A stretch of 42,006 nucleotides of DNA from IMG/VR virus record IMGVR_UViG_3300013005_000022, positions 118,443 through 160,448 of that record; one strand, given 5' to 3'. This stretch comes from a virus (Duplodnaviria > Heunggongvirae > Uroviricota > Caudoviricetes). Shown piece by piece: positions 3,259 through 21,720 of the stretch (the stretch's first letter is position 1; each line of letters starts with the position of its first letter). The notes under the pieces were generated by a model that was not told the origin of the DNA, ran no database searches, and saw only the letters and a program-made list of their open reading frames with translations. A program made the position numbers and the translations under genes.

Positions 3259-3553
3259 AGAAAACCTGCTTACTCAAGGTGAATATAATCCGGGTAGCGA
3301 GAATAACGATCTAGAAAAGATTCGTTTTTATCGTGCTACCTGGAAAAACTTCTTCGATTACTGGAAGGCTAGAGGTGTTAAAACCGATCCTTATGAAGGT
3401 ACAGAAATGGAATATCCAACTAAAGCAGTTCAGGATAAACCAACTTTGCCGTATCAGGATTTTGGCACTTATGACAAATCCAAAAGAAATCAGAAACTAT
3501 CTGAAAGTTTCGATGACTTCCAAAAAGAAGAAGATAATTCAATTGACGAGTAA
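3242..3553 (+). CDS. hypothetical protein
   Basis: Intact ATG ORF overlapping the previous gene. Confidence 0.55.
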   Translation: MQKPNKENLLTQGEYNPGSENNDLEKIRFYRATWKNFFDYWKARGVKTDPYEGTEMEYPTKAVQDKPTLPYQDFGTYDKSKRNQKLSESFDDFQKEEDNSIDE

Positions 3554-3568
3554 GTACATATAATTAAT

Positions 3569-3796
3569 ATGTCGTACCGAGAATTAACTCCCAATCCTAA
3601 TTTTTCCGAAAATCTTAACGGCTTAATGTTTAAATTCATTGAGCGATTAGATATGGATGCTCGTGATCGTGAGATTTTCGAGGATATAGCCTTATTCATT
3701 TACCATGAAGGTAAATTGGATGGCAAGGAAGAATACCTAAACGAAGTAATAGAAACTAAATTAACAGATAATGCAGAAAATGAAAACGCCCATTAG
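3569..3796 (+). CDS. hypothetical protein
   Basis: Intact ORF preceded by CATATAAT at 3557. Confidence 0.55.
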   Translation: MSYRELTPNPNFSENLNGLMFKFIERLDMDARDREIFEDIALFIYHEGKLDGKEEYLNEVIETKLTDNAENENAH

Positions 3797-4952
3797 TGGG
3801 TTACCAACTATTGGATTGAGCATCATTGTAAAGAATGAATCCAAAGTAATTGAAAGAATGCTCAACACAGTACATTCAATACTTGATTACTATTGCGTAA
3901 TTGATACTGGATCTACTGACGGAACTCAAGATATTATCCGTAAGTTTTTTGAAGAAAAAGGAATACCTGGTGAAGTAATAGATCATCCATGGACTAACTT
4001 CCAAGATGCTCGTAATACCGCTCTAAATGCAGTAAAAGGAAAAGCAGATTTTGGATTTTGGATAGATGCCGATGAACAATTAACATTCAATCCAGGATTT
4101 AATATCATGAACCTGAAAATGAGCTTAGCTAAAATCGATGGTGGAAATGTAAAAGTAACATACGGTGATCAGAATTATTATCGTATGCAATTCTTTAGAA
4201 CCGACAAGCCATGGTATTGGTATGGACCAGTACACGAAGTACTTATAAGCGATGAACCACTTGGTTCGGCTGAAGTACCAGGTCTTGGTGTTTTCGTTAC
4301 CCCTGACGGTAACTCATGGACATCTGAATCAATTCAATCTAAATATGAAGGTCATGCTAAAATTCTAGAAGATTATGTAGCAAACGATCCTAAAAAAGAC
4401 CCTCGTTGGTTATTCTATCTAGCTCAATCATATCGAGATGCTGGTGGTGAAGAAAACCTAAAGAAATCACTTGAATGGTATAATAAACGTGCCGAAAACC
4501 TAACTGGATTTTGGGAAGAAGTTTATTACTCTGGCTTAATGGCGGCTACTATTAAAGCTCAATTAAAATACTCAACCCCAGAAATCATTGAAGATTACCT
4601 TCGAATAGGTAAAATGAACATCTATCGTTGTGAACACTTAGTTCCCATCATTATGCATTATCAGGCAATCAAAGAATTTGATATTTCATATATCTTCTCT
4701 TCACATGCCATGAAATATGCCGGTAAGACACCATTCCCTAAAGCGACACTATTCATCGATAAAAATACCTATCTATGGAAGATCTACGATTTACATTGCC
4801 TAAATTGTTTCTATTCCGGTCGTAAAGAAGAAGGTGAACAAACTTTCAAGAAACTACTTAAAGCTAAAGAGAAAGGTTATATTCCTCAATCGGAATTAGC
4901 TAGAATCGAGCAAAATCGTCAATGGTTTGTTAAAGCAAAAAACGGTAAATAA
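3771..4952 (+). CDS. family 2 glycosyltransferase with TPR-like C-terminus
   Basis: SIIVKNE, IDTGSTDGT, WIDADE (DXD) and HEVL motifs, then WLFYLAQSYRD helical repeats. Confidence 0.85.
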   Translation: MQKMKTPISGLPTIGLSIIVKNESKVIERMLNTVHSILDYYCVIDTGSTDGTQDIIRKFFEEKGIPGEVIDHPWTNFQDARNTALNAVKGKADFGFWIDADEQLTFNPGFNIMNLKMSLAKIDGGNVKVTYGDQNYYRMQFFRTDKPWYWYGPVHEVLISDEPLGSAEVPGLGVFVTPDGNSWTSESIQSKYEGHAKILEDYVANDPKKDPRWLFYLAQSYRDAGGEENLKKSLEWYNKRAENLTGFWEEVYYSGLMAATIKAQLKYSTPEIIEDYLRIGKMNIYRCEHLVPIIMHYQAIKEFDISYIFSSHAMKYAGKTPFPKATLFIDKNTYLWKIYDLHCLNCFYSGRKEEGEQTFKKLLKAKEKGYIPQSELARIEQNRQWFVKAKNGK

Positions 4953-5167
4953 TGAAACTTAATAAAAGAGACGATATTAAAGTAGCTATCTGGGAAAACG
5001 AAAGAGTAGTTACTAATGACTCTAATATTGTGTATGCTGAAATCAATGACAATGATTTATTTCTCTTAATTAAGACCGAATCAAAAGACTATAAAATTAA
5101 AATATCCAAATATGAAAACCATAAAGAAAATGAACCCGAAAGGGGAAATGGAGTACAGGAGAGTTAA
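4952..5167 (+). CDS. hypothetical protein
   Basis: Start coupled to the upstream stop (TAATG). Confidence 0.5.
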   Translation: MKLNKRDDIKVAIWENERVVTNDSNIVYAEINDNDLFLLIKTESKDYKIKISKYENHKENEPERGNGVQES

Positions 5168-5327
5168 TGACTCTGAAGGAAACAATCTTACACGAGTTGG
5201 ATGGAGCTTCTGTCCAAAAACTGAGTGGAAAGAAAACGTAAGAGATTTCGGTAAAACGAAAGACGAAACTCCTAAGGCAGCAAAGCCTAAAAAGGAGAAG
5301 AAAACTAAAAAGGAAATAGCCGCTTAA
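5112..5327 (+). CDS. small Lys-rich hypothetical protein
   Basis: Intact ORF with a GWSFCPKTEWK core, followed by a terminator. Confidence 0.6.
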   Translation: MKTIKKMNPKGEMEYRRVNDSEGNNLTRVGWSFCPKTEWKENVRDFGKTKDETPKAAKPKKEKKTKKEIAA

Positions 5328-5338
5328 TTGCGGCTTTT
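5318..5338 (+). terminator. intrinsic terminator
   Basis: agccgc-ttaatt-gcggct followed by ttt. Confidence 0.6.
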
Positions 5339-5372
5339 GCCTTTTTGCCATCGAGAGATGAATATATAATAC

Positions 5373-6686
5373 ATGAAAAGATTATTAAAGTACAAAGACT
5401 TTGTTGATGAGATAAATGAAGGTTCTCGTCTTCAAGAGTTAGTAGATCAACTTCCTTTATTTGAAGGTGGTGCATACGGTCACTTAGCACATCCATTTGA
5501 AGATATGGATTTGACTATGGGAGATCTTCATGCAATGATACAAGATACCGTTAAAGGAGCCTTTGGTCCTGAGAATTTCGTTCAAGAAAAAACTGATGGC
5601 CAACAAATATCAATATCTTGGAAAGATAGTAAATTAATTGCAGCAAGAAATAAAGGTCACTTAAAGAATGCCGGAGAAAATGCTCTAGATTCTGCTGGTA
5701 TTGCTTCTATGTTTGCTGGTCGTGGAGATATTGAAATTGCTTATAATGCAGCAATGGAAGATCTAGAAAACTCTATTGGAAAGTTATCTGATAAAGATAA
5801 ATTAGCTTTCTTTGGTAATGGTAAGAAATTCGCTTCACTAGAAGTTATCACTCCTATAACACAAAACACAGTTCCTTACGGTCAAAATATGTTGGTATTT
5901 CATGGAATACTCGAATATGACGAATCAGGTAGTGTTATAGATGAAGATAAACAAGCTGCTAGAAATCTTGGTAAAGCAATCGCTGATGCTAATTTGGCTG
6001 CACAAAAAATGTTCTTTGTTAGAGGTCCTCAAGACATGGATGTTAAACCATTCCCTAACACAGAAAAAAGAGCTTCTTACTACGAAAACAAATACCGAGA
6101 TATTCTTAAACAAACTGGTCTAACTGATGCATCTACCGTTCATGATTATGCAATGGGTATGGCTAGGTTAGTACTTACTGAAGAAGCTAAAAAATCAGGT
6201 GTTGAAATCCCCGCATCTTCAATCGATGGTTTGGCTGCTCGTATAGCAGATATCAACAAATCTTATTCTGTATCACTAATCAAAAAAGAACTTGGTTCTA
6301 ATGCTGATTGGTATTTCGATTTAGAGAAGAAAAGTGCTAAACAACTTAAACGTAAAGTATATGCTCCAATCGAATCTTTATTCTTAGAGATTGGAACTGA
6401 ATTTATGAAAAATATGTCGACCTTCTTATCGGCAAATCCTACTGCAGCTGCAGAGGCAATGAAAAAAGAAATTGATTCTACTATCGCAAAAATCCGTACA
6501 AACGGAGACGAAAAAGATGTAGAGAAATTAGAACACGAACTAACTCGAGTTACTGCTGCTGGTGGTGTTGAAGGATTGGTTCCTACTGAAGGAATTACAT
6601 TCGTTTACAAAGGTAAACTTTACAAGTATACCGGAATTTTTGCTCCATTACATCAGATACGCTCGATTTTAGCTTATAAAAAATAA
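5373..6686 (+). CDS. ligase/capping-enzyme-fold nucleotidyltransferase (DUF6267-like) with capsid-targeting N-terminus
   Basis: Motif I QEKTDG, AARNK, SLEVI, motif IV PTEGITF, motif V LYKYT; N-terminus KYKDFVDEINE and LFE-GGAYGHLAHP. Confidence 0.65.
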   Translation: MKRLLKYKDFVDEINEGSRLQELVDQLPLFEGGAYGHLAHPFEDMDLTMGDLHAMIQDTVKGAFGPENFVQEKTDGQQISISWKDSKLIAARNKGHLKNAGENALDSAGIASMFAGRGDIEIAYNAAMEDLENSIGKLSDKDKLAFFGNGKKFASLEVITPITQNTVPYGQNMLVFHGILEYDESGSVIDEDKQAARNLGKAIADANLAAQKMFFVRGPQDMDVKPFPNTEKRASYYENKYRDILKQTGLTDASTVHDYAMGMARLVLTEEAKKSGVEIPASSIDGLAARIADINKSYSVSLIKKELGSNADWYFDLEKKSAKQLKRKVYAPIESLFLEIGTEFMKNMSTFLSANPTAAAEAMKKEIDSTIAKIRTNGDEKDVEKLEHELTRVTAAGGVEGLVPTEGITFVYKGKLYKYTGIFAPLHQIRSILAYKK

Positions 6687-6695
6687 AAGTAAATT

Positions 6696-6872
6696 ATGCA
6701 AAAGTACGAAGAAATTAAAGCGTTAATCACATCTATCGATGCTGACGTAGACAAATTCTATAACAAAGGAAATAAGTCTGCTGGAACTCGTATCCGTAAA
6801 GCTATGCAAGATTTGAAAAAACTTGCTCAAGATCTACGTGTTGACGTTCAAGAATCAAAGAGTGCTGAATAA
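6696..6872 (+). CDS. histone H1-like (Hc1-family) nucleoid protein, 58 aa; not in the supplied ORF track
   Basis: Manual translation MQKYEEIKALITSIDADVDKFYNKGNKSAGTRIRKAMQDLKKLAQDLRVDVQESKSAE; GNKSAGTRIRK is the family signature. Confidence 0.8.
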   Translation: MQKYEEIKALITSIDADVDKFYNKGNKSAGTRIRKAMQDLKKLAQDLRVDVQESKSAE

Positions 6873-6877
6873 TCTAA

Positions 6878-7336
6878 ATGTCTGATTTATTCAAAACTAA
6901 TGAGGATTCTGCCTTTGGTCCAGGAATGATGTTCGGCATCCCTGGTCCTGGTCCAAAAGCGGATTCTCCAAAAATTCCATCTGATAAAAAGAAGGAAAAA
7001 GGAATTAAACCAAATCAAATGAAAAATTCAAATACTTCATCATTCAAAAAATTTAATGAATTTAATACATTCATAGAAGATCCTTTTAAAACAGGTAATC
7101 ATGTTTGGCTTAAAACTATTAAAATAGGAGATATTGCAGTAGTTACTGTAGTCGCTTCTATTGATGGATTTGACGAAACTCATACAGCATCCATATCGGT
7201 AATTACAAAATCAATGGATTCTTCCGGTGAAGAACTTGCATCAGAAAAACTGGTTCTACATCAAAAAGATTTTAGTAGCGTAAAAGATGCTACCAAACAT
7301 CTAGTAGAAAAAGAAAAAGAAACATCATTCAAATAA
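6878..7336 (+). CDS. hypothetical protein, possible internal head protein
   Basis: Internal FKKFNEFNTFIE resembles the targeting motif of its neighbours. Confidence 0.5.
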   Translation: MSDLFKTNEDSAFGPGMMFGIPGPGPKADSPKIPSDKKKEKGIKPNQMKNSNTSSFKKFNEFNTFIEDPFKTGNHVWLKTIKIGDIAVVTVVASIDGFDETHTASISVITKSMDSSGEELASEKLVLHQKDFSSVKDATKHLVEKEKETSFK

Positions 7337-7337
7337 C

Positions 7338-7922
7338 ATGTTAAAATTTAAAGAATTTGTTAGTGATATTCTAATATTTGAAAAGGTTGATGGAAAGGAA
7401 GTTGCTATATTTCCTGGACGTTTTCAACCATTTCATAATGGACATATTGAAGCAATACACAGAGCAGCAAAACAATTTGGTGTACCGGTTATTCCAATTC
7501 AAATCAAATCAAAAAATGAAAATTCTCCATTTCCGGATTCTCTTCTAGAAAAAATTGGTAAAGCTATGGTGAAGGAATTTCCTTTTATTGAAGATTATGT
7601 TTTGTATCCGGCAGACAAGAAAACGGTTATACCTCAAATGGTTAAGTTAGTCCAAGAAAGAGGTTACGATCCAATTGGTGTTGGTTGTGGAAGTGATCGT
7701 TTAAGAGATTACGAACGTCAAGTTGAATATCTAACATCACCAAAATCTGATGTACCGGTTAATAAATTCTCGGTTATAATGGTTGATGAGAGAAGAGCGG
7801 ATGGTCCTTCTGGAACTAAAGTTCGTGAAGCGCTTATGAATGATGATAAAGAAGCATTCGAAAAAGCTACCCCGAGATCACTACATCCATTCTATAAAGA
7901 ACTACAAAAATACCTTAAATAA
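7338..7922 (+). CDS. HxGH-class nucleotidyltransferase (NadM/cytidyltransferase-like) with capsid-targeting N-terminus
   Basis: FPGRFQPFHNGH, GSDR and SGTKVRE motifs; N-terminus MLKFKEFV...LIFE. Confidence 0.8.
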   Translation: MLKFKEFVSDILIFEKVDGKEVAIFPGRFQPFHNGHIEAIHRAAKQFGVPVIPIQIKSKNENSPFPDSLLEKIGKAMVKEFPFIEDYVLYPADKKTVIPQMVKLVQERGYDPIGVGCGSDRLRDYERQVEYLTSPKSDVPVNKFSVIMVDERRADGPSGTKVREALMNDDKEAFEKATPRSLHPFYKELQKYLK

Positions 7923-8203
7923 TGAAACACATTCAAAAATACGACGAATTTATCAATGAATCAGTCAAATTTAAGAAATTTGACAAATTCAAGCACATAA
8001 CTTTTCCTGACGTTACCGGAACCATCTATGATGGTCCATCGACATTCAAAGATTTAGAAGATCACGGTTACGATGTACCGGAAATTTCCGAGCTTCCGAA
8101 AGAACAAAAAGCGGATTTAAAAAAGAAAGCTTGGTACGGAGTCGTTCTATATGATAAAGTTACTAAATTTGCAATACACGAAAGTGAATTAAAAAAGGCA
8201 TAA
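7922..8203 (+). CDS. putative internal head protein
   Basis: N-terminus MKHIQKYDEFINE-S. Confidence 0.6.
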   Translation: MKHIQKYDEFINESVKFKKFDKFKHITFPDVTGTIYDGPSTFKDLEDHGYDVPEISELPKEQKADLKKKAWYGVVLYDKVTKFAIHESELKKA

Positions 8204-8206
8204 TAT

Positions 8207-8554
8207 ATGAAACCTATTAAAGATTATACAGAATTCGTAAACGAATCGTCGAAAACGACAAAACCGGATATCTTGGTAAAGCTATTCAAAGAATTATCTA
8301 AAGCTAAAAACGTTGAATCTGTAGCTTGGGGATTCGATAACGATGAAGAGTTTCCTCATATCGTTCATTTTGCATCTGGATTAAAATCCGAGGCACCTAG
8401 ACATGAAGGAGAAATGGAAGATTTTTCATTTTACTTAAATGATGATGGTAAAACTATTCTTGGAATCTATGATTTAAGTGGAAACGATCAAGAATTAAAA
8501 ACCGTCAAAGACGCCATCGAATGGTGTAGAGCTAACGAAAAACAAAAATCATAA
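8207..8554 (+). CDS. putative internal head protein
   Basis: N-terminus MKPIKDYTEFVNE-S. Confidence 0.6.
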   Translation: MKPIKDYTEFVNESSKTTKPDILVKLFKELSKAKNVESVAWGFDNDEEFPHIVHFASGLKSEAPRHEGEMEDFSFYLNDDGKTILGIYDLSGNDQELKTVKDAIEWCRANEKQKS

Positions 8555-8561
8555 TATAAAT

Positions 8562-9509
8562 ATGAAACCTATAAAAAACTACGAAGAATTCGTTAATGAA
8601 GCCTGGATTGGTCCATTCGTATTCAATGAAGATATGACAGACGATGAACTAAAAGCTATCTATCAAGGTGCATTAGATGGATTCGCTTATTGGCAAAAAG
8701 GATTTGAATATCCAAAAGCCGATTACAAAAAGGCATATACCGAAATTGGAAAGATTCTAAAGAAAAGAGGAGTTAATGTTGACGAATCGGTTAATGAAAA
8801 ATTAGATCCGAATAAATTACACGACATATTGACATCGTTTATTGATATAGCCGGTAAATTAACTAAAGTAGATTTATCGCATATTGCTGGACAGCAACCT
8901 AGAGATTTAGATGATTGTATTCGTTTGATTCTTAACGAATTACCTAAAGAGGTAAAAAATAAATTTGTTAATCAAGCGGAAAAATATATAGAGACTAAAA
9001 AGATTAAAGAATCGGTTAATGAAGGATCTAATCATGAAATGGTAAAGAAAGAAGCAATCAGTAGATTATCTGACTTTTTCCGAGTATCTCCTGGTCCTTT
9101 AATGAAATTCAAATTTGATGGTAATGATAATATCAAAGAGCTAACAAAAGTTCTTAATTCTACATCTGATCAAGGAACCGAGTTATATTATAAAACCGCT
9201 ATTAAACTTGCGCAAGAAGAAGTTGGTTTCGATGAATCTATTGATGAAAGTCTTTCAAAATTAGATGAAGGTGTCGTTAAGCAATTCGAAATTGATTATA
9301 AAGACATGGAAACTAATATCAAACGAGGTATTGGTTGGATTGAACCTGATTATGTTGAAGAGACTTGGGAGAATTCTTCAGATACTATCGATTATGAAAT
9401 CGTTAGAAACGAAATCTTAACTCGTTTAATTAAAGCTGGTCTTCTTTACACATCACGAGATGGTGAAACTCAAGACAAGAAAATTACCAACATAAGTCAA
9501 ATTAAATAA
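8562..9509 (+). CDS. putative internal head polyprotein with several protease sites
   Basis: N-terminus MKPIKNYEEFVNE-A plus internal VDESVNE, IKESVNE and FDESIDE...LDE clusters. Confidence 0.6.
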   Translation: MKPIKNYEEFVNEAWIGPFVFNEDMTDDELKAIYQGALDGFAYWQKGFEYPKADYKKAYTEIGKILKKRGVNVDESVNEKLDPNKLHDILTSFIDIAGKLTKVDLSHIAGQQPRDLDDCIRLILNELPKEVKNKFVNQAEKYIETKKIKESVNEGSNHEMVKKEAISRLSDFFRVSPGPLMKFKFDGNDNIKELTKVLNSTSDQGTELYYKTAIKLAQEEVGFDESIDESLSKLDEGVVKQFEIDYKDMETNIKRGIGWIEPDYVEETWENSSDTIDYEIVRNEILTRLIKAGLLYTSRDGETQDKKITNISQIK

Positions 9510-10411
9510 TGCTAAAATTTAATCAATTTGTTAATCTAGTTCTTAATGAAGGAGGTAATGCCATTGAAGCTTCTCGTCCTATTCTGCAATCTGAAATAGA
9601 CGCAACCTATCAATATGTTATCAAGAACATATATCCAGCTATCGGTCTTACCGAGGATTTTGCTAAACCTATAGGTTCATTTAAGAAAAAATCACCCGAT
9701 CAAACATCTGGTGATATTGATATTGCAGTACTTGCTGATAGAATTGCTGGTGAAAACGGAATTGATTTATCTCAAGTTCTCGAATTTATTGCATCTAAGC
9801 TAAGCGCTTATTCACCAGTTGTTAGTAAAGGATTCCAACAAGTTTCCATAGGCGTTCCAATTGAAGGAAACAAGAAAAATGGTATTGCACAAATTGATTT
9901 AATGTTAACTGATAATCTGAATTTTTCTACTTTCATGTATCACTCACCGGATTTTACGAAAGCAGAATCTAAATATAAAGGACTTTATCGTAATATTCTC
10001 CTAATGAATATTATAAGCAATTCAAAAAGAGAAACTACCAAGCTAACTGACAAAGGAGAAATCGAAGAATACAAATCATATGTACTTCGTCTAAATCAAG
10101 GTGTTGTTGCGGTAACTAAATCGTTTATGGGTAAGAAAGGGTTGGTTAAGAATCCTACTCTACTTAACGATCAAGATAAATTTATGTCCAATACCCCAGA
10201 AGTTATTGCTGAATTGGCATTCGGACCTACTGTTCCAATATCTGAGATAATGACTTTTGAAGATATATGGAGACACACAACCGATTCTAAATTTATCCAC
10301 AAAGATAAATTAGATGCAATTCTAAAAGACTTTAGAACCAGGTTATTGGCTGCAAAGGTTCCATTCCCTACTGAATGCGTAGAACAATATCCTAATATAT
10401 TCACTGCATAA
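9509..10411 (+). CDS. Pol-beta-superfamily nucleotidyltransferase with capsid-targeting N-terminus
   Basis: PIGS...SGDIDIAV (GS and DxD) and third Asp in QIDLM; N-terminus MLKFNQFV...LNE-GGNA. Confidence 0.75.
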   Translation: MLKFNQFVNLVLNEGGNAIEASRPILQSEIDATYQYVIKNIYPAIGLTEDFAKPIGSFKKKSPDQTSGDIDIAVLADRIAGENGIDLSQVLEFIASKLSAYSPVVSKGFQQVSIGVPIEGNKKNGIAQIDLMLTDNLNFSTFMYHSPDFTKAESKYKGLYRNILLMNIISNSKRETTKLTDKGEIEEYKSYVLRLNQGVVAVTKSFMGKKGLVKNPTLLNDQDKFMSNTPEVIAELAFGPTVPISEIMTFEDIWRHTTDSKFIHKDKLDAILKDFRTRLLAAKVPFPTECVEQYPNIFTA

Positions 10412-11934
10412 TGTTAAAATATAACGAATTTATCCAATGGTTGAATGAATCTGCCATGGCTCCAGTTGAATGGAATGAAAAACCTAAATACCGAGTACAA
10501 TTTCTTAGCTTCTTGGAAGATAAGAGTAAAGAGCTTATTATCGACGGTAAATACAAATCATCATATCCATTTCTTACATTTAAAGTTTCGGATATCTCTA
10601 ATTTAGGAGAGATTATATCTTTTATAGAGAGCGATAAACTTGTCTCAGTTAAAGAACCTTTAATGGATGTTAATTCGGTTAAGATTCCTTTAACTCATTT
10701 ACTAAAAACTGGTCTATTTACCGGTCAATCAAAGACCTCAACCGATACCGATACCAAAGAAGGTATGGTTGTTTACTTCTACTATAATCAAGGAGTAGAT
10801 ATTCTTACTATGAAGAATTCTGAAGCGGTTGCTTTAGTAGATAAAATTCCTATGGGAGATCTACATCCAAAAGCTATGGATAAACTTCGTCTATGGCTAT
10901 CCGATTTTGATAGAGCTAATAAAGAACAAATCGATCAATGGAAATCTACTGGAATGGTAATGGCTGAATTTTTAGCCGGTGGATATCATTTAGATCGAAA
11001 CGAAATACTTACAAAAGTTAGAGATAAAGCTAGAATTCTTTCTGGATTAGCACCAGATAATTGGTGTCCTGGAGATGTTTATTTAGTAGATCCTTCTGCT
11101 AAATCTACTATACTTGATTATGTAAATAATGCAAAAACCATAGGTGAATTAAATTTATTATTCAATGATACATTCACACCAAGAAAATCTTTAGCCGAAC
11201 CAATGGGTTCTATCGTAGCCGTTTCTCTTAAGCAACAAGCGGCTAGATTAGGAAGAGCAAAAGAATTCTTAAAAACGATATCTAATAAAGATTCAATATA
11301 TAACCTTTCAAAAGATGAATTAGACAAATGTAAAACTGATGAATCTTGGGCAAAAGGTGAAATTTCTAAATATCAACAACTTTTAGGAACGGTTTCTTCT
11401 AAAGCAGATATAACTGTACATTATACACCAGGAAATGTAGATCATCTAAAATCCGATTCATTGCCTAGTAAATTAGCCGCTATTAAATTAGCATACCATC
11501 TACTTACTCTCCCTAAAGATTCACCACAAGATCTTGATGATAATCTTCTAAAAGTTCTTCAATTTGGACTTAAACAAGCGGATAAAGCAACAAATCCTCC
11601 ATATTTCAAAATCACCGGAAGTATAAAAGGTGAAGGTAGCCTAGAGTTCTTTCATGGAGGAGATACTTTAAAATTATTAATTGGCGGAATTGGTAACAAA
11701 GAAGCTAAGTTAGTTATTTTAGATATACCTAGTAGATTAGATATTGTTCTATTCTATTACGTTGCTATCGGAGATACTGCATATGAAATCCGTTTAAGAG
11801 CCGCAACTACTGGAAGTAAACAAGCTGGATTAGAATTTGAAAGAAAGGATATTATTGGTAATATTGTGGAAGATCCTATCGGAACAAAAGCCAAAATTGA
11901 CAAATTATTTCATCAAAGATCCTCGATGAAATAA
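10411..11934 (+). CDS. putative PD-(D/E)XK-like nuclease with capsid-targeting N-terminus
   Basis: TKEG, WCPGDVY and AVSLKQ resemble the E...PxD...SLK pattern of phage restriction-fold nucleases; N-terminus MLKYNEFIQWLNE-S. Confidence 0.45.
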   Translation: MLKYNEFIQWLNESAMAPVEWNEKPKYRVQFLSFLEDKSKELIIDGKYKSSYPFLTFKVSDISNLGEIISFIESDKLVSVKEPLMDVNSVKIPLTHLLKTGLFTGQSKTSTDTDTKEGMVVYFYYNQGVDILTMKNSEAVALVDKIPMGDLHPKAMDKLRLWLSDFDRANKEQIDQWKSTGMVMAEFLAGGYHLDRNEILTKVRDKARILSGLAPDNWCPGDVYLVDPSAKSTILDYVNNAKTIGELNLLFNDTFTPRKSLAEPMGSIVAVSLKQQAARLGRAKEFLKTISNKDSIYNLSKDELDKCKTDESWAKGEISKYQQLLGTVSSKADITVHYTPGNVDHLKSDSLPSKLAAIKLAYHLLTLPKDSPQDLDDNLLKVLQFGLKQADKATNPPYFKITGSIKGEGSLEFFHGGDTLKLLIGGIGNKEAKLVILDIPSRLDIVLFYYVAIGDTAYEIRLRAATTGSKQAGLEFERKDIIGNIVEDPIGTKAKIDKLFHQRSSMK

Positions 11935-11973
11935 GATAAATAAAATACACAAAAAACCAACAAAATTCAAAAT

Positions 11974-12756
11974 ATGAAACACATACAAACATTTGGTGAA
12001 TTTATTAATGAAAGCGTTAATAAGTCATCTTTTTTAAAGATGAATTCAATAGATCAGGCTAATTCGATCATTGAAGATCCTTTAGTAATGTCATATATAT
12101 CAGGAGACAAATTTGCTGGTATTATTGCTGATTTAAGAGGAGATAATGATACTATCAAAAGATTAGTAAATTCAATAAATTTAGAAGATCTTAAATTATG
12201 GCCTTTAACTAGATTAGCAGAATTTTTTCCTGAATATGGTCCTCAAGTAGTAGATATCCTATTAAAAGGAAAAGTAAAAGAGAAATTGAATTTGTCAATT
12301 TTCTTTACCCTGTACAATTCTCTTCCTAACATGAATAAGCTTAAAGATCTTCCACAAATACCTAAAGGCATATACGTAGAATCGGTTAATTGGTGTCCAA
12401 CCCTAATCGAAATTTTTACACCAGAGATATGTGCAAAATCTACAATCGCAGAAGGAAGAGGTGCAATTTATCAAGCTTTACGATTCATAACCTTACCAGA
12501 TGAATTTGTTTCGATTAAAGATAAACAAACTTACGTAGATGCTCTTTCTAAACCTATTAAAAAACAATTAGACGAGTATTCTCAAGGAGACTTAGGAAAA
12601 ATTAATGAAACTTTTACTGAAAGTGCATTTTCTAACAGATTTCTTGTAGGTAAAAACGAACAAAAATTCGTGGGAAAATACAATACTAATCTACGTTCAA
12701 ATACTCCTGAAGGATTATCCTATTTTAATAAATGGGCTACTCAGTTAACGTTTTAA
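11974..12756 (+). CDS. putative internal head protein
   Basis: N-terminus MKHIQTFGEFINE-S; GATAAATA at 11935. Confidence 0.6.
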   Translation: MKHIQTFGEFINESVNKSSFLKMNSIDQANSIIEDPLVMSYISGDKFAGIIADLRGDNDTIKRLVNSINLEDLKLWPLTRLAEFFPEYGPQVVDILLKGKVKEKLNLSIFFTLYNSLPNMNKLKDLPQIPKGIYVESVNWCPTLIEIFTPEICAKSTIAEGRGAIYQALRFITLPDEFVSIKDKQTYVDALSKPIKKQLDEYSQGDLGKINETFTESAFSNRFLVGKNEQKFVGKYNTNLRSNTPEGLSYFNKWATQLTF

Positions 12757-12789: not shown

Positions 12790-13377
12790 ATGTACACAAG
12801 AGAACAGGTAGAAGGAGCCATAAAGGCCAAAGGATACGTTTGGTTTGAAGGAGAAAAGGATTACGATGTTAATATCGTGGGAATTAGAAATTCAGCCACC
12901 GGTCAAAAAGTAACAAATGCATTTGACGATACAATAACTTTATCTTATAAAGTTGGAGGTCAGTGGAAATTTCATACATGGGCATGTACAACAGACCCAG
13001 GAAAAAAAGGTGTTATGGAATATCATAATGCTGCAGGTGTTGCAAGATTAGTTGAAGGTCAATATCGTGGATCTCATGGTATTGGTTTACATCAAGGAAA
13101 ATATGAAGCTTTAAGACAAGCTAAAAACGTTAAAGTTTATAGAGATGCTAATAAAGATTTGAATTATGACGAGAATAAAATCCAAGAAGGAGTATTCGGA
13201 ATCAATATTCATAAAGCCGGTGCAGATTCTACTTACGTAGAGAACTGGTCAGAAGGATGTCAGGTATTTAAAAGATCTAAAGATTTTGATGAATTCATGG
13301 CGATCATTCGCAAATCAAGAGATATCCACGGAAACTCTTTTACTTATACTCTTATCGAATCAATCGATATCAAATAA
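12790..13377 (+). CDS. putative peptidoglycan hydrolase (YkuD/L,D-transpeptidase-like catalytic motif)
   Basis: GINIHKAG...WSEGCQV matches the H...SxGC catalytic pattern. Confidence 0.55.
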   Translation: MYTREQVEGAIKAKGYVWFEGEKDYDVNIVGIRNSATGQKVTNAFDDTITLSYKVGGQWKFHTWACTTDPGKKGVMEYHNAAGVARLVEGQYRGSHGIGLHQGKYEALRQAKNVKVYRDANKDLNYDENKIQEGVFGINIHKAGADSTYVENWSEGCQVFKRSKDFDEFMAIIRKSRDIHGNSFTYTLIESIDIK

Positions 13378-13406
13378 AGACCTCTAAAAAATATACTTAA
13401 TGCCAC

Positions 13407-13790
13407 ATGTTCGTACCAAATCACATCCACGTACTTATTAAAGGTTACGTAAAAAATCCACCTAGAAAAGAAGAAGATCTTAATGATTGGTTTCGACGAT
13501 TGGTTGAAAAAGTAAGAATGGTAGTAGTTGCCGGACCTACCTCCGTTTATGTTAATGAACCAGGTAACGAAGGTTTAACTGGAACTGTTACTTTAGCAAC
13601 ATCACATGCATCTATACATGTATGGGATAATTTAGAACCAGCAATGTTTCAATTCGATCTATACTCTTGTTCAGAATTCACTCCACAAGAAGTAATAGAA
13701 CACTTAGAAGAATTTGATTTAGTTTCGTGTGAATGGATGTTTATCGACAGAAACAATGAAATGAAAGTTGTGGAAACCGGAAATGTTTAA
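13407..13790 (+). CDS. speD: S-adenosylmethionine decarboxylase proenzyme-like (pyruvoyl)
   Basis: GLTG...LATSHASIHVW...FDLYSC. Confidence 0.8.
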   Translation: MFVPNHIHVLIKGYVKNPPRKEEDLNDWFRRLVEKVRMVVVAGPTSVYVNEPGNEGLTGTVTLATSHASIHVWDNLEPAMFQFDLYSCSEFTPQEVIEHLEEFDLVSCEWMFIDRNNEMKVVETGNV

Positions 13791-14260: not shown

Positions 14261-14788
14261 ATGGCAAGACGTAAAGTATACAATCGAACTATTATGTTTT
14301 TCGGTCCAGTTACCGAGAACAATGTTTCTAAAGTCATCGATCAGATTGATGCCATTTTAGAAGAAGATCCGAATGATAATGGTCCCATCAAAATCATTTT
14401 ATCTAGCGAAGGTGGAGATGTATATGAAGGATTTGGTCTTATAGGTTATATGGAATCCGTTCCAATTAAATTCCACATACATTGTGTTGGAAAGATTATG
14501 TCAATGGCTTTACCTATAGCCGTTGCCGGTGACGTAGTTACCGCCTCTCCTTATTGTACTTTCATGTATCATGAAATATCGAGTTCTATTTCATCTCAAG
14601 AGAAGGTGCAGTACTTCAAACAAGAAACAAAAGAATGCGAACGTCTACAAAAGATGTATGACGAATTTCTAATCAAACACACTAAATTTGATGCTGCATT
14701 CTTAGATGATATCAAAAACAGAAGATCAGAATTCTATTTTTCTCCAAAGGAAGCTATTAAGTTTGGAGTCATATCTTCAATAGCTTAG
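14261..14788 (+). CDS. ClpP-like protease subunit 1
   Basis: SEGGDV, KIMSMA (catalytic Ser) and FMYHE (His). Confidence 0.8.
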   Translation: MARRKVYNRTIMFFGPVTENNVSKVIDQIDAILEEDPNDNGPIKIILSSEGGDVYEGFGLIGYMESVPIKFHIHCVGKIMSMALPIAVAGDVVTASPYCTFMYHEISSSISSQEKVQYFKQETKECERLQKMYDEFLIKHTKFDAAFLDDIKNRRSEFYFSPKEAIKFGVISSIA

Positions 14789-21156: not shown

Positions 21157-21720
21157 ATGATAATGAAGTTATTCAAGAAATTTAAAGAATTCTTAATAGA
21201 AGCATCTGGAAACACATATGATTATGGATGTGCTATGTTGTATTTTGAATTTCCTAAAATGTCAGAGATACACGAACAAATCGATCCATCAGATATCTAT
21301 GAAGAAGACGAAGACAAAACATATGGTTTAGAAGATGAACCACATTGCACTCTTCTATATGGCTTACATAAAGAAGTTAAAACTCCAAAGATTCAAAAGA
21401 TCTTGGGTGAATTTATATTCGGTCCTTGTGAAATTCATAATGCTTCTTTATTTGAAAATCCCAAATATGATGTTTTGAAATTTGATGTTAAGAACGATGA
21501 ATTACACAAATGTAACAAATCGCTTTGTGAACTTCCATTCACATCTGATTACCCAGATTATCATCCACATATGACTATCGCATACTTAAAGCCAGGAACC
21601 GGTAAAAAATATGTAGAGAGGTTGAAAGATGTAAAATATACATTAGATCCTAGCCACGGAGTATTCAGTCATCCTGATGGTAGCAAAGATCGATTAACAA
21701 TAAACAAATTTAGGAAATAA
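21157..21720 (+). CDS. 2H phosphodiesterase, Acb1/T4 gp57B-like, with capsid-targeting N-terminus
   Basis: Two HxT motifs (PHCTLLY, PHMTIAY); DYPDYHPHMT resembles Acb1 DFDDYTPHIT; N-terminus KFKEFLIE-A. Confidence 0.7.
   Translation: MIMKLFKKFKEFLIEASGNTYDYGCAMLYFEFPKMSEIHEQIDPSDIYEEDEDKTYGLEDEPHCTLLYGLHKEVKTPKIQKILGEFIFGPCEIHNASLFENPKYDVLKFDVKNDELHKCNKSLCELPFTSDYPDYHPHMTIAYLKPGTGKKYVERLKDVKYTLDPSHGVFSHPDGSKDRLTINKFRK

Follow-up and report, generated by a model that had tools for sequence, protein, structure and literature searches.

The terminal 42 kb (42,006 nucleotides, the window) of the 160,448-bp IMG/VR virus contig IMGVR_UViG_3300013005_000022 contain, between positions 5373 and 12756, eight genes whose products start with a common short leader resembling the capsid targeting sequence (CTS) of bacteriophage T4. 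We consider it likely that these genes constitute one late unit of head cargo. A preliminary description of the sequence had interpreted the leader as a T4-type capsid-targeting signal removed by a prohead protease. At the level of sequence, our data backed this interpretation through the agreement with the mapped CTS positions, the presence of an S77 protease among T4-type head genes, the cut sites of the scaffold, the linkers of the orthologues and the lack of the leader in distant homologues. Positions refer to the window unless the contig is named.

The contig has a G+C content of 34%, carries nearly all its genes on the same strand and was estimated by CheckV to be 52% complete. The major capsid protein shares 55% identity with its counterpart in the 462-kb uncultured phage LR756500.1, about 40% with those of Lak megaphages and 32-34% with those of Tenacibaculum phages pT24 and PTm1 and Sphingomonas phage PAU. 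Given these relatives and the presence of the contig DNA in many lake-water metagenomes, we take the contig as a fragment of a giant freshwater phage, whose host is probably a member of the Bacteroidota. Megablast of the stretch 5373-12756 against 50,697 phage records gave no match. Lake-water metatranscriptome contigs matched scattered 150-280-nt pieces of genes 1, 2, 3, 6, 7 and 8 at 100% identity, at most a hint of transcription; these matches may include DNA carry-over, and transcript starts and timing cannot be read from them.

The eight open reading frames (ORFs) were found at the places given in the preliminary description, with N-termini reading as quoted there. Their leaders, 13-16 residues long, follow the consensus M-K-x-[ILV]-x-x-[FY]-x-[ED]-F-[ILV]-N-E; all eight keep [FY]-x-x-F and end in [ILV]-N-E or [ILVF]-x-E. 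The residue following the leader glutamate is S, G or A in 15 of the 19 leader proteins of the contig. A motif search over the whole contig, as had been recommended, located the leader at N-termini: 18 ORFs carried the pattern [YFW]-x-[EDQ]-F-[VIL]...[ILV]-x-E with a start among the first 11 residues, versus 0.1 expected from its rate inside proteins (2 internal occurrences in 47,447 positions). A six-frame scan added two leader ORFs, so that about 20-21 of the contig's roughly 230 ORFs carry the leader, and leader genes make up about 6-9% of the genes in this lineage. The stretch singled out in the preliminary description is accordingly not unique, being one among several leader clusters in the contig. 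As for its description as an operon of leader proteins, this held for the eight genes, while two genes inside the stretch (6696-6872 and 6878-7336) start without a leader.

Different synonymous codons encode the motif residues in the different genes (TTT/TTC, GTT/GTA, AAT/AAC, TAC/TAT), which indicates selection on the peptide and not on the DNA. The mature parts that follow the leaders have unrelated folds. In IMG/VR, the exact leader pattern was present in at least 120 stretches; among the matches listed, 118 of the 127 in-frame ones start ORFs of at least 40 aa. Two related contigs of 294 and 317 kb hold 14 to about 20 leader genes in tandem downstream of a gene 1 homologue, and LR756500.1 carries about 22 such genes.

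The T4 tag itself was confirmed by reading the T4 genome, where ipII and ipIII start with M-K-T-Y-Q-E-F-I-A-E. Mutational work on this CTS attributed targeting to residues 4 and 7 and processing to residues 8 and 10 (PMC9026906). These four positions, the aromatic Y4, F7, I8 and E10, are the conserved positions of the leader described here. A search for a gp21-like protease, likewise recommended beforehand, retrieved adjacent Portal_T4, Peptidase_S77 and Gp23 genes in the contig. The S77 protease forms the N-terminal part of a 634-aa protein (contig 43467-45371), the remainder of which is scaffold-like. With 17 [ILV]-x-E-[SGA] sites, this ORF is more densely occupied by cut motifs than any other in the genome, at 7.6 times the background (0.355 per 100 aa; P = 3e-10). 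As a positive control, the same count applied to T4 picked out the scaffold protein gp22 (3.7 versus 0.40 per 100 aa, P = 2e-7), and the enrichment in the scaffold was repeated in a complete 256-kb relative. A ClpP-family gene at 14261-14788 (175 aa, 1.5 kb downstream of the cluster, labelled head maturation protease in PHROGs) was set aside as the maturation protease on account of the location of the S77 gene, which has the portal gene on one side and the capsid gene on the other; the S77 gene is the likelier prohead protease.

Orthologues from metagenomes showed how the leader is joined to the rest of the protein. Among 120 homologues of gene 1, with core identities of 65-94%, the region preceding the core varied in sequence and in length (14-46 aa), the aromatic-x-x-F leader was kept in 108 of 114, and [ILVFMY]-x-E stood directly before the invariant G-G-x-Y-G-H-L core in 114 of 118. 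For gene 6, the cut motif directly preceded the G-G-N-A core in every one of 104 orthologues; about 20 of them contain an extra domain of about 100 aa that is joined to the core via a second E-F-[IV]-N-E. Orthologues of gene 7 have two successive cut sites. Homologues of gene 7 at 26-31% identity lack the leader, as does a protein of Microcystis phage Mel-JY01 that combines a cytidylyltransferase and a gene 1-like domain, and in the AlphaFold2 (AF2) models of genes 1 and 7 the leader forms a helix of its own, after which a linker modelled with low confidence spans the predicted cut. For these reasons we regard the leader as an add-on to the proteins.

The near-contiguous arrangement of the genes in the cluster, with spacings of -1 to 39 nt, a hairpin upstream at 5318-5335 and the TATATAAT element fit one transcription unit for the eight genes. 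Elements of the type TATATAA[AT] precede the genes for the tail sheath and the protease-scaffold protein and five further leader genes by 23-27 nt (for example at contig positions 70037, 43442, 6644 and 35507). That structural and leader genes have this element in common fits their late co-expression. A second element, CATATAAT, was seen 12-32 nt before many other contig genes; TATATAA[AT] and CATATAAT may represent two promoter classes.

With T4 as the guide for the physical steps, we infer core binding, cleavage, retention and ejection, and beyond them the enzyme roles, as follows. The eight cargo genes would be transcribed late, each product being made with its leader of 13-16 residues. During prohead building, the leader would bind the pre-protein to the scaffolding core. 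The scaffold-fused S77 protease, once activated within the prohead, would then cut after the glutamate of [ILV]-x-E, in most cases where S, G or A comes next, and often a second time at the site that closes the variable linker. The mature proteins would be retained alongside the DNA inside the head and most likely exit together with it upon infection.

The preliminary description had counted at least three recognisable enzymes among the products, and this assessment stood: genes 1, 2 and 6 read as ligase-like, HIGH-motif and Pol-beta-type nucleotidyltransferases, respectively. For gene 1, the nearest Atlas clusters are viral and 23-24% of their members are labelled DUF6267; Pfam gave no match to the query itself. 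The fold is often fused to a cytidylyltransferase-like domain. The AF2 model (pLDDT 81) had its best VIA match with the ligase domain of Trl1 (119 aa, root-mean-square deviation (rmsd) 4.0), and about 40 chains of RNA or DNA ligases or capping enzymes aligned with model residues 70-222; the VIA Z, 6.7 at best over 100-119 residues, does not reach the level at which the tool itself is confident, and Foldseek E values were at least 0.066. The alignments begin at model residue 70-71, opposite residue 96 of T4 Rnl1 and residue 167 of Naegleria Rnl. The stretch K73-T-D-G76, a motif I of the form K-x-D-G, is invariant in 48 sequences, and K73 was taken as the motif I lysine because of this alignment start; the K99M and K170M entries mark the corresponding Rnl lysines. 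Taken together, the modest fold score and motif I suggest that the mature part of gene 1 is a DUF6267-like, ligase-like nucleotidyltransferase of the ligase/capping type.

Gene 2 matched PF01467 (CTP_transf_like) with E 1.8e-9 and 38.3 bits, versus a cut-off of 21, and TIGR00125 above its cut-off, whereas models for NMNAT and PPAT scored far below theirs. Its H-N-G-H motif (aa 33-36) comes right after the leader. In gene 6, G56-S57, D69-x-D71 and D130 are invariant in 34 sequences and correspond to the G-[GS]...D-x-D signature with a third carboxylate, by which it would be a Pol-beta-superfamily nucleotidyltransferase. Thirteen of the 34 homologues weakly match PF14792 (best E 7.4e-5), the query itself having no Pfam match, and a profile search with gene 6 against PDB gave nothing relevant. 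Sequence searches against PDB with genes 1, 6 and 7 likewise gave nothing relevant.

At the level of a lead, the AF2 model of gene 7 (pLDDT 83) resembles PD-(D/E)xK restriction endonucleases of the MspI/HinP1I/HpaII type, with VIA Z of 5.2 to HinP1I and 5.0 to MspI (188-189 aa, rmsd 5.2-5.3), an Atlas feature score of 0.86 and AFDB matches at E 0.085 and 0.58. Foldseek with this model against PDB retrieved nothing at E <= 0.001. D222 and S272-L-K274 are invariant. Gene 5 contains five further [ILV]-x-E-[SGA] sites, and since all of them sit in linkers it is probably a cargo polyprotein that would be cut into about four modules. In a homologue (P0253), a V-D-E-S-L-V-N-E junction connects a gene 5-type first module to an enzyme of the gene 6 type. 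Genes 3, 4, 5, 7 and 8 and the 152-aa gene within the cluster matched no family in Pfam, PHROGs, NCBIfam or PADLOC.

Both related contigs (294 and 317 kb) hold genes 1 and 2 and one of them holds gene 6; genes 3, 4, 5, 7 and 8 were not found in either. Genes 1 and 2 form a conserved pair, gene 6 is conserved among relatives, and the others are variable cargo. A cytidylyltransferase-like domain is fused to the gene 1-like domain in Mel-JY01 (3290-5209 of the stretch examined) and, in LR756500.1 (10277-12238 of the stretch examined), to an N-terminal part that is ligase-like as judged by eye. These fusions argue that genes 1 and 2 work together.

Another leader-bearing product of the window, an Acb1-like 2H phosphoesterase (21157-21720), has both H-x-T motifs, and the complete 256-kb relative encodes a leader-bearing Acb1-like copy as well. 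Judged by its sequence, this protein may be a pre-packaged anti-CBASS enzyme, and a counter-defence role is plausible for it. For the eight genes of the cluster, the proposal of a counter-defence module in the preliminary description was not supported: none of the eight matches a known anti-defence family in PADLOC, and such a role is therefore a guess. On a broader reading, which we hold to be doubtful, giant phages of this lineage would deliver, with their DNA, a ready-made nucleic-acid toolkit that acts before any phage gene expression. This toolkit would comprise the pair of ligase-like and HIGH-motif enzymes, the Pol-beta nucleotidyltransferase, the restriction-endonuclease-like protein and the Acb1-like phosphoesterase, and might serve RNA/DNA end repair or modification, attack on host DNA and destruction of immune signals.

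Several observations weigh against the assignment of the eight genes to a late unit of head cargo. We found no virion proteome of a leader-bearing relative, and the source phage is uncultivated. The presence of the S77 protease-scaffold gene in five out of five large leader-bearing IMG/VR contigs speaks for the assignment, but this test was made on leader-bearing contigs alone and without a negative control. The cultured Tenacibaculum phage PTm1 (32% capsid-protein identity), which has a published virion proteome, encodes its own S77 protease-scaffold, but neither the leader nor any other shared N-terminal tag was found in it; the tag is thus specific to a lineage, and this type of protease does not require it as a partner. 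The mature parts of the leader proteins showed no overall depletion of cut motifs (13 observed, 12.3 expected); genes 1, 6 and 7 jointly had 0 sites versus about 3.6 expected, in a post hoc comparison. The promoter-like element of gene 1 lies 10 nt from the start codon and not at about 25 nt. Finally, a GT2 glycosyltransferase of a deoxy-amino-sugar cassette (contig 79523-80401) starts with the leader M-E-F-L-K-Y-K-N-F-V-L-N-E and is an odd candidate for a packaged protein.

This glycosyltransferase would be easier to accommodate if the proteins were targeted and processed but acted inside the particle or in assembly, and not in the next host, as core or scaffold accessories, in DNA condensation or charge balance, or as enzymes on packaged DNA. 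We judge this improbable. It draws on T4 IPIII, which affects head morphogenesis, the roles of IPII and IPIII being still open (PMC9026906), on the resemblance of gene 5 to a multiply cut core-type protein and on the histone-like Hc1 gene within the cluster. T4 cargo with this tag, however, is ejected, including Alt, IPI and foreign fusions (PMC9026906; PMC3012670), and there is no obvious capsid substrate for large soluble enzymes with intact catalytic motifs or for the Acb1-like phosphoesterase.

Still less credit is due to the idea that the leader has nothing to do with the capsid and serves in sorting, maturation or stability, for example as a tag for the ClpP-like protease (14261-14788), and that its likeness to T4 is convergent. 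The nearby ClpP-family gene and the untagged S77 protease of PTm1 would agree with this, and the tie between tag and head is one of sequence. Convergence would, however, have to account for the match at all four mapped CTS positions, for a leader-end cut motif identical to the motif enriched in the S77-fused scaffold, where the same test recovers gp22 in T4, and for the S77 gene in all large leader-bearing contigs tested. A DNA-level origin, in which the shared gene start reflects a cassette for recombination or regulation, or a duplication remnant, with a functionless peptide, could draw on tandem leader arrays that differ between relatives and on a shared start that could promote module shuffling, but this explanation was rejected as highly improbable, being largely refuted by residues that are kept while their codons vary synonymously, by orthologues at 65-75% identity that keep residues and cut motif across variable linkers, and by the unrelated folds of the mature parts.

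The features of the cluster, seen as head cargo, and of its surroundings in the window are compiled below.

Table. Positions of the leader genes and associated features in the window
Feature	Position	Strand	Remarks
Terminator-like hairpin with T-run	5318..5335	+	6-bp stem with 5 G-C pairs, T-rich tail; closes upstream unit
TATATAAT promoter-like element, late type	5363..5370	+	10 nt before gene 1 start codon
Gene 1	5373..6686	+	437 aa; leader aa 1-16 (nt 5373-5420); second predicted cut after E31 (nt 5465)
Hc1 histone H1-like	6696..6872	+	58 aa, no leader; PF07432, E 9e-25
152-aa protein	6878..7336	+	no N-terminal leader; no family match
Gene 2	7338..7922	+	194 aa; leader aa 1-15 (nt 7338-7382); HIGH-motif (cytidylyl/adenylyl) nucleotidyltransferase
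Gene 3	7922..8203	+	93 aa; leader aa 1-13 (nt 7922-7960); no known family
Gene 4	8207..8554	+	115 aa; leader aa 1-13 (nt 8207-8245); no known family
Gene 5	8562..9509	+	315 aa; leader aa 1-13 (nt 8562-8600); probable cargo polyprotein
Gene 6	9509..10411	+	300 aa; leader aa 1-14 (nt 9509-9550); Pol-beta-superfamily nucleotidyltransferase by signature
Gene 7	10411..11934	+	507 aa; leader aa 1-13 (nt 10411-10449); weak restriction-endonuclease likeness
Gene 8	11974..12756	+	260 aa; leader aa 1-13 (nt 11974-12012); no known family
Acb1-like 2H phosphoesterase with leader	21157..21720	+	185-187 aa; PF23474 (E 1.4e-7) and PF13563, both above cut-off

Of the two leaderless genes inside the cluster, the Hc1 gene has a 54% identical copy in LR756500.1, at a different genome position. 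The 152-aa protein has a Gly/Pro/Lys-rich start and, near aa 56-68, an internal leader-like segment F-K-K-F-N-E-F-N-T-F-I-E-D, in which Asp replaces the final Glu. In T4, a CTS with Asp at this position allows targeting and blocks processing (PMC9026906). The cluster is followed at 12790-13790 by genes for an endolysin-like protein (weak YkuD match, 195 aa) and an S-adenosylmethionine decarboxylase-like protein (127 aa), neither of which carries a leader.

Further observations were made elsewhere in the contig. An 825-aa Lys/Glu-rich protein beside the capsid gene (contig 47800-50277) has the leader-like sequence L-F-N-E-F-I-S-E at aa 35-42, and many cut motifs occur within its first 80 residues. 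The head genes are closely followed by a leader gene (contig 50755-52254) whose 500-aa product is a RimK-type ATP-grasp protein with a C-terminal part resembling Zn_protease. A 468-aa ORF without family match (contig 36312-37718) adjoins a leader gene; its 10 [ILV]-x-E-[SGA] sites give it the second-highest density of cut motifs among ORFs of at least 150 aa, and its product may be an additional component of the core or scaffold.

Should the tag act as it does in T4, the virion-carried and probably injected proteins of uncultivated giant phages could be listed from sequence alone. Injected proteins are the first effectors to meet the host defences, and the long, enzyme-rich list would hint at pre-made counter-defence or host takeover beyond IPI and Alt. 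The leader is near enough to the T4 CTS for testing in the T4 packaging system and could become a second tag for loading foreign proteins into capsids. In our literature searches, no paper mentioned DUF6267 or tied huge or jumbo uncultivated phages to capsid targeting sequences.

The closest known system is that of the T4 CTS and its protease gp21. Both systems use a short N-terminal tag with an aromatic residue, F, [ILV] and E at the same relative positions and ending in [IL]-x-E, and both combine it with an S77 protease, a T4-type portal and capsid protein and a scaffold rich in the same cut motif. As with the T4 internal proteins, unrelated proteins share the tag alone and their genes lie in variable arrays; the nearest published parallel to the gene array is formed by the polymorphic loci for internal proteins in T-even phages, whose products have been described as diverse defence proteins that share only the CTS (PMC3012670). 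There are also differences. The leader described here has about 3 additional residues at its start, and the Glu is nearly always preceded by N, where T4 has A. Often a variable linker is followed by a second cut site, some of the cargo is polyprotein-like, and protease and scaffold form a single protein. Half a genome holds about 20 tagged genes, compared to a handful in T4, and the cargo consists mostly of sizeable enzymes, unlike the small basic proteins of T4. A freshwater bacterium of the Bacteroidota is the probable host, and the system is known from sequence only.

Phages of the phiKZ type offer a second comparison. Their propeptides are longer and dissimilar, with a site of the S/A/G-x-E type, and we know of no single short tag shared between them, whereas one T4-like tag marks all the cargo here. 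According to three papers (PMC5694885, PMC7411985, PMC10052503), these giant phages (phiKZ gp175, SPN3US gp245) have dozens of head proteins, enzymes included, and a T4-related prohead protease trims head proteins after Glu. T4 Alt provides a precedent for an enzyme carried in the head: this ADP-ribosyltransferase is trimmed by gp21, injected and active before phage transcription (PMC9026906; T4 annotation). Alt, however, has its own 7-residue propeptide and not a CTS of the internal-protein type, whereas the enzymes described here would be nucleotidyltransferases. All in all, the principle of capsid targeting has been known from T4 since the 1990s, and what is new here is the number and kind of the cargo.

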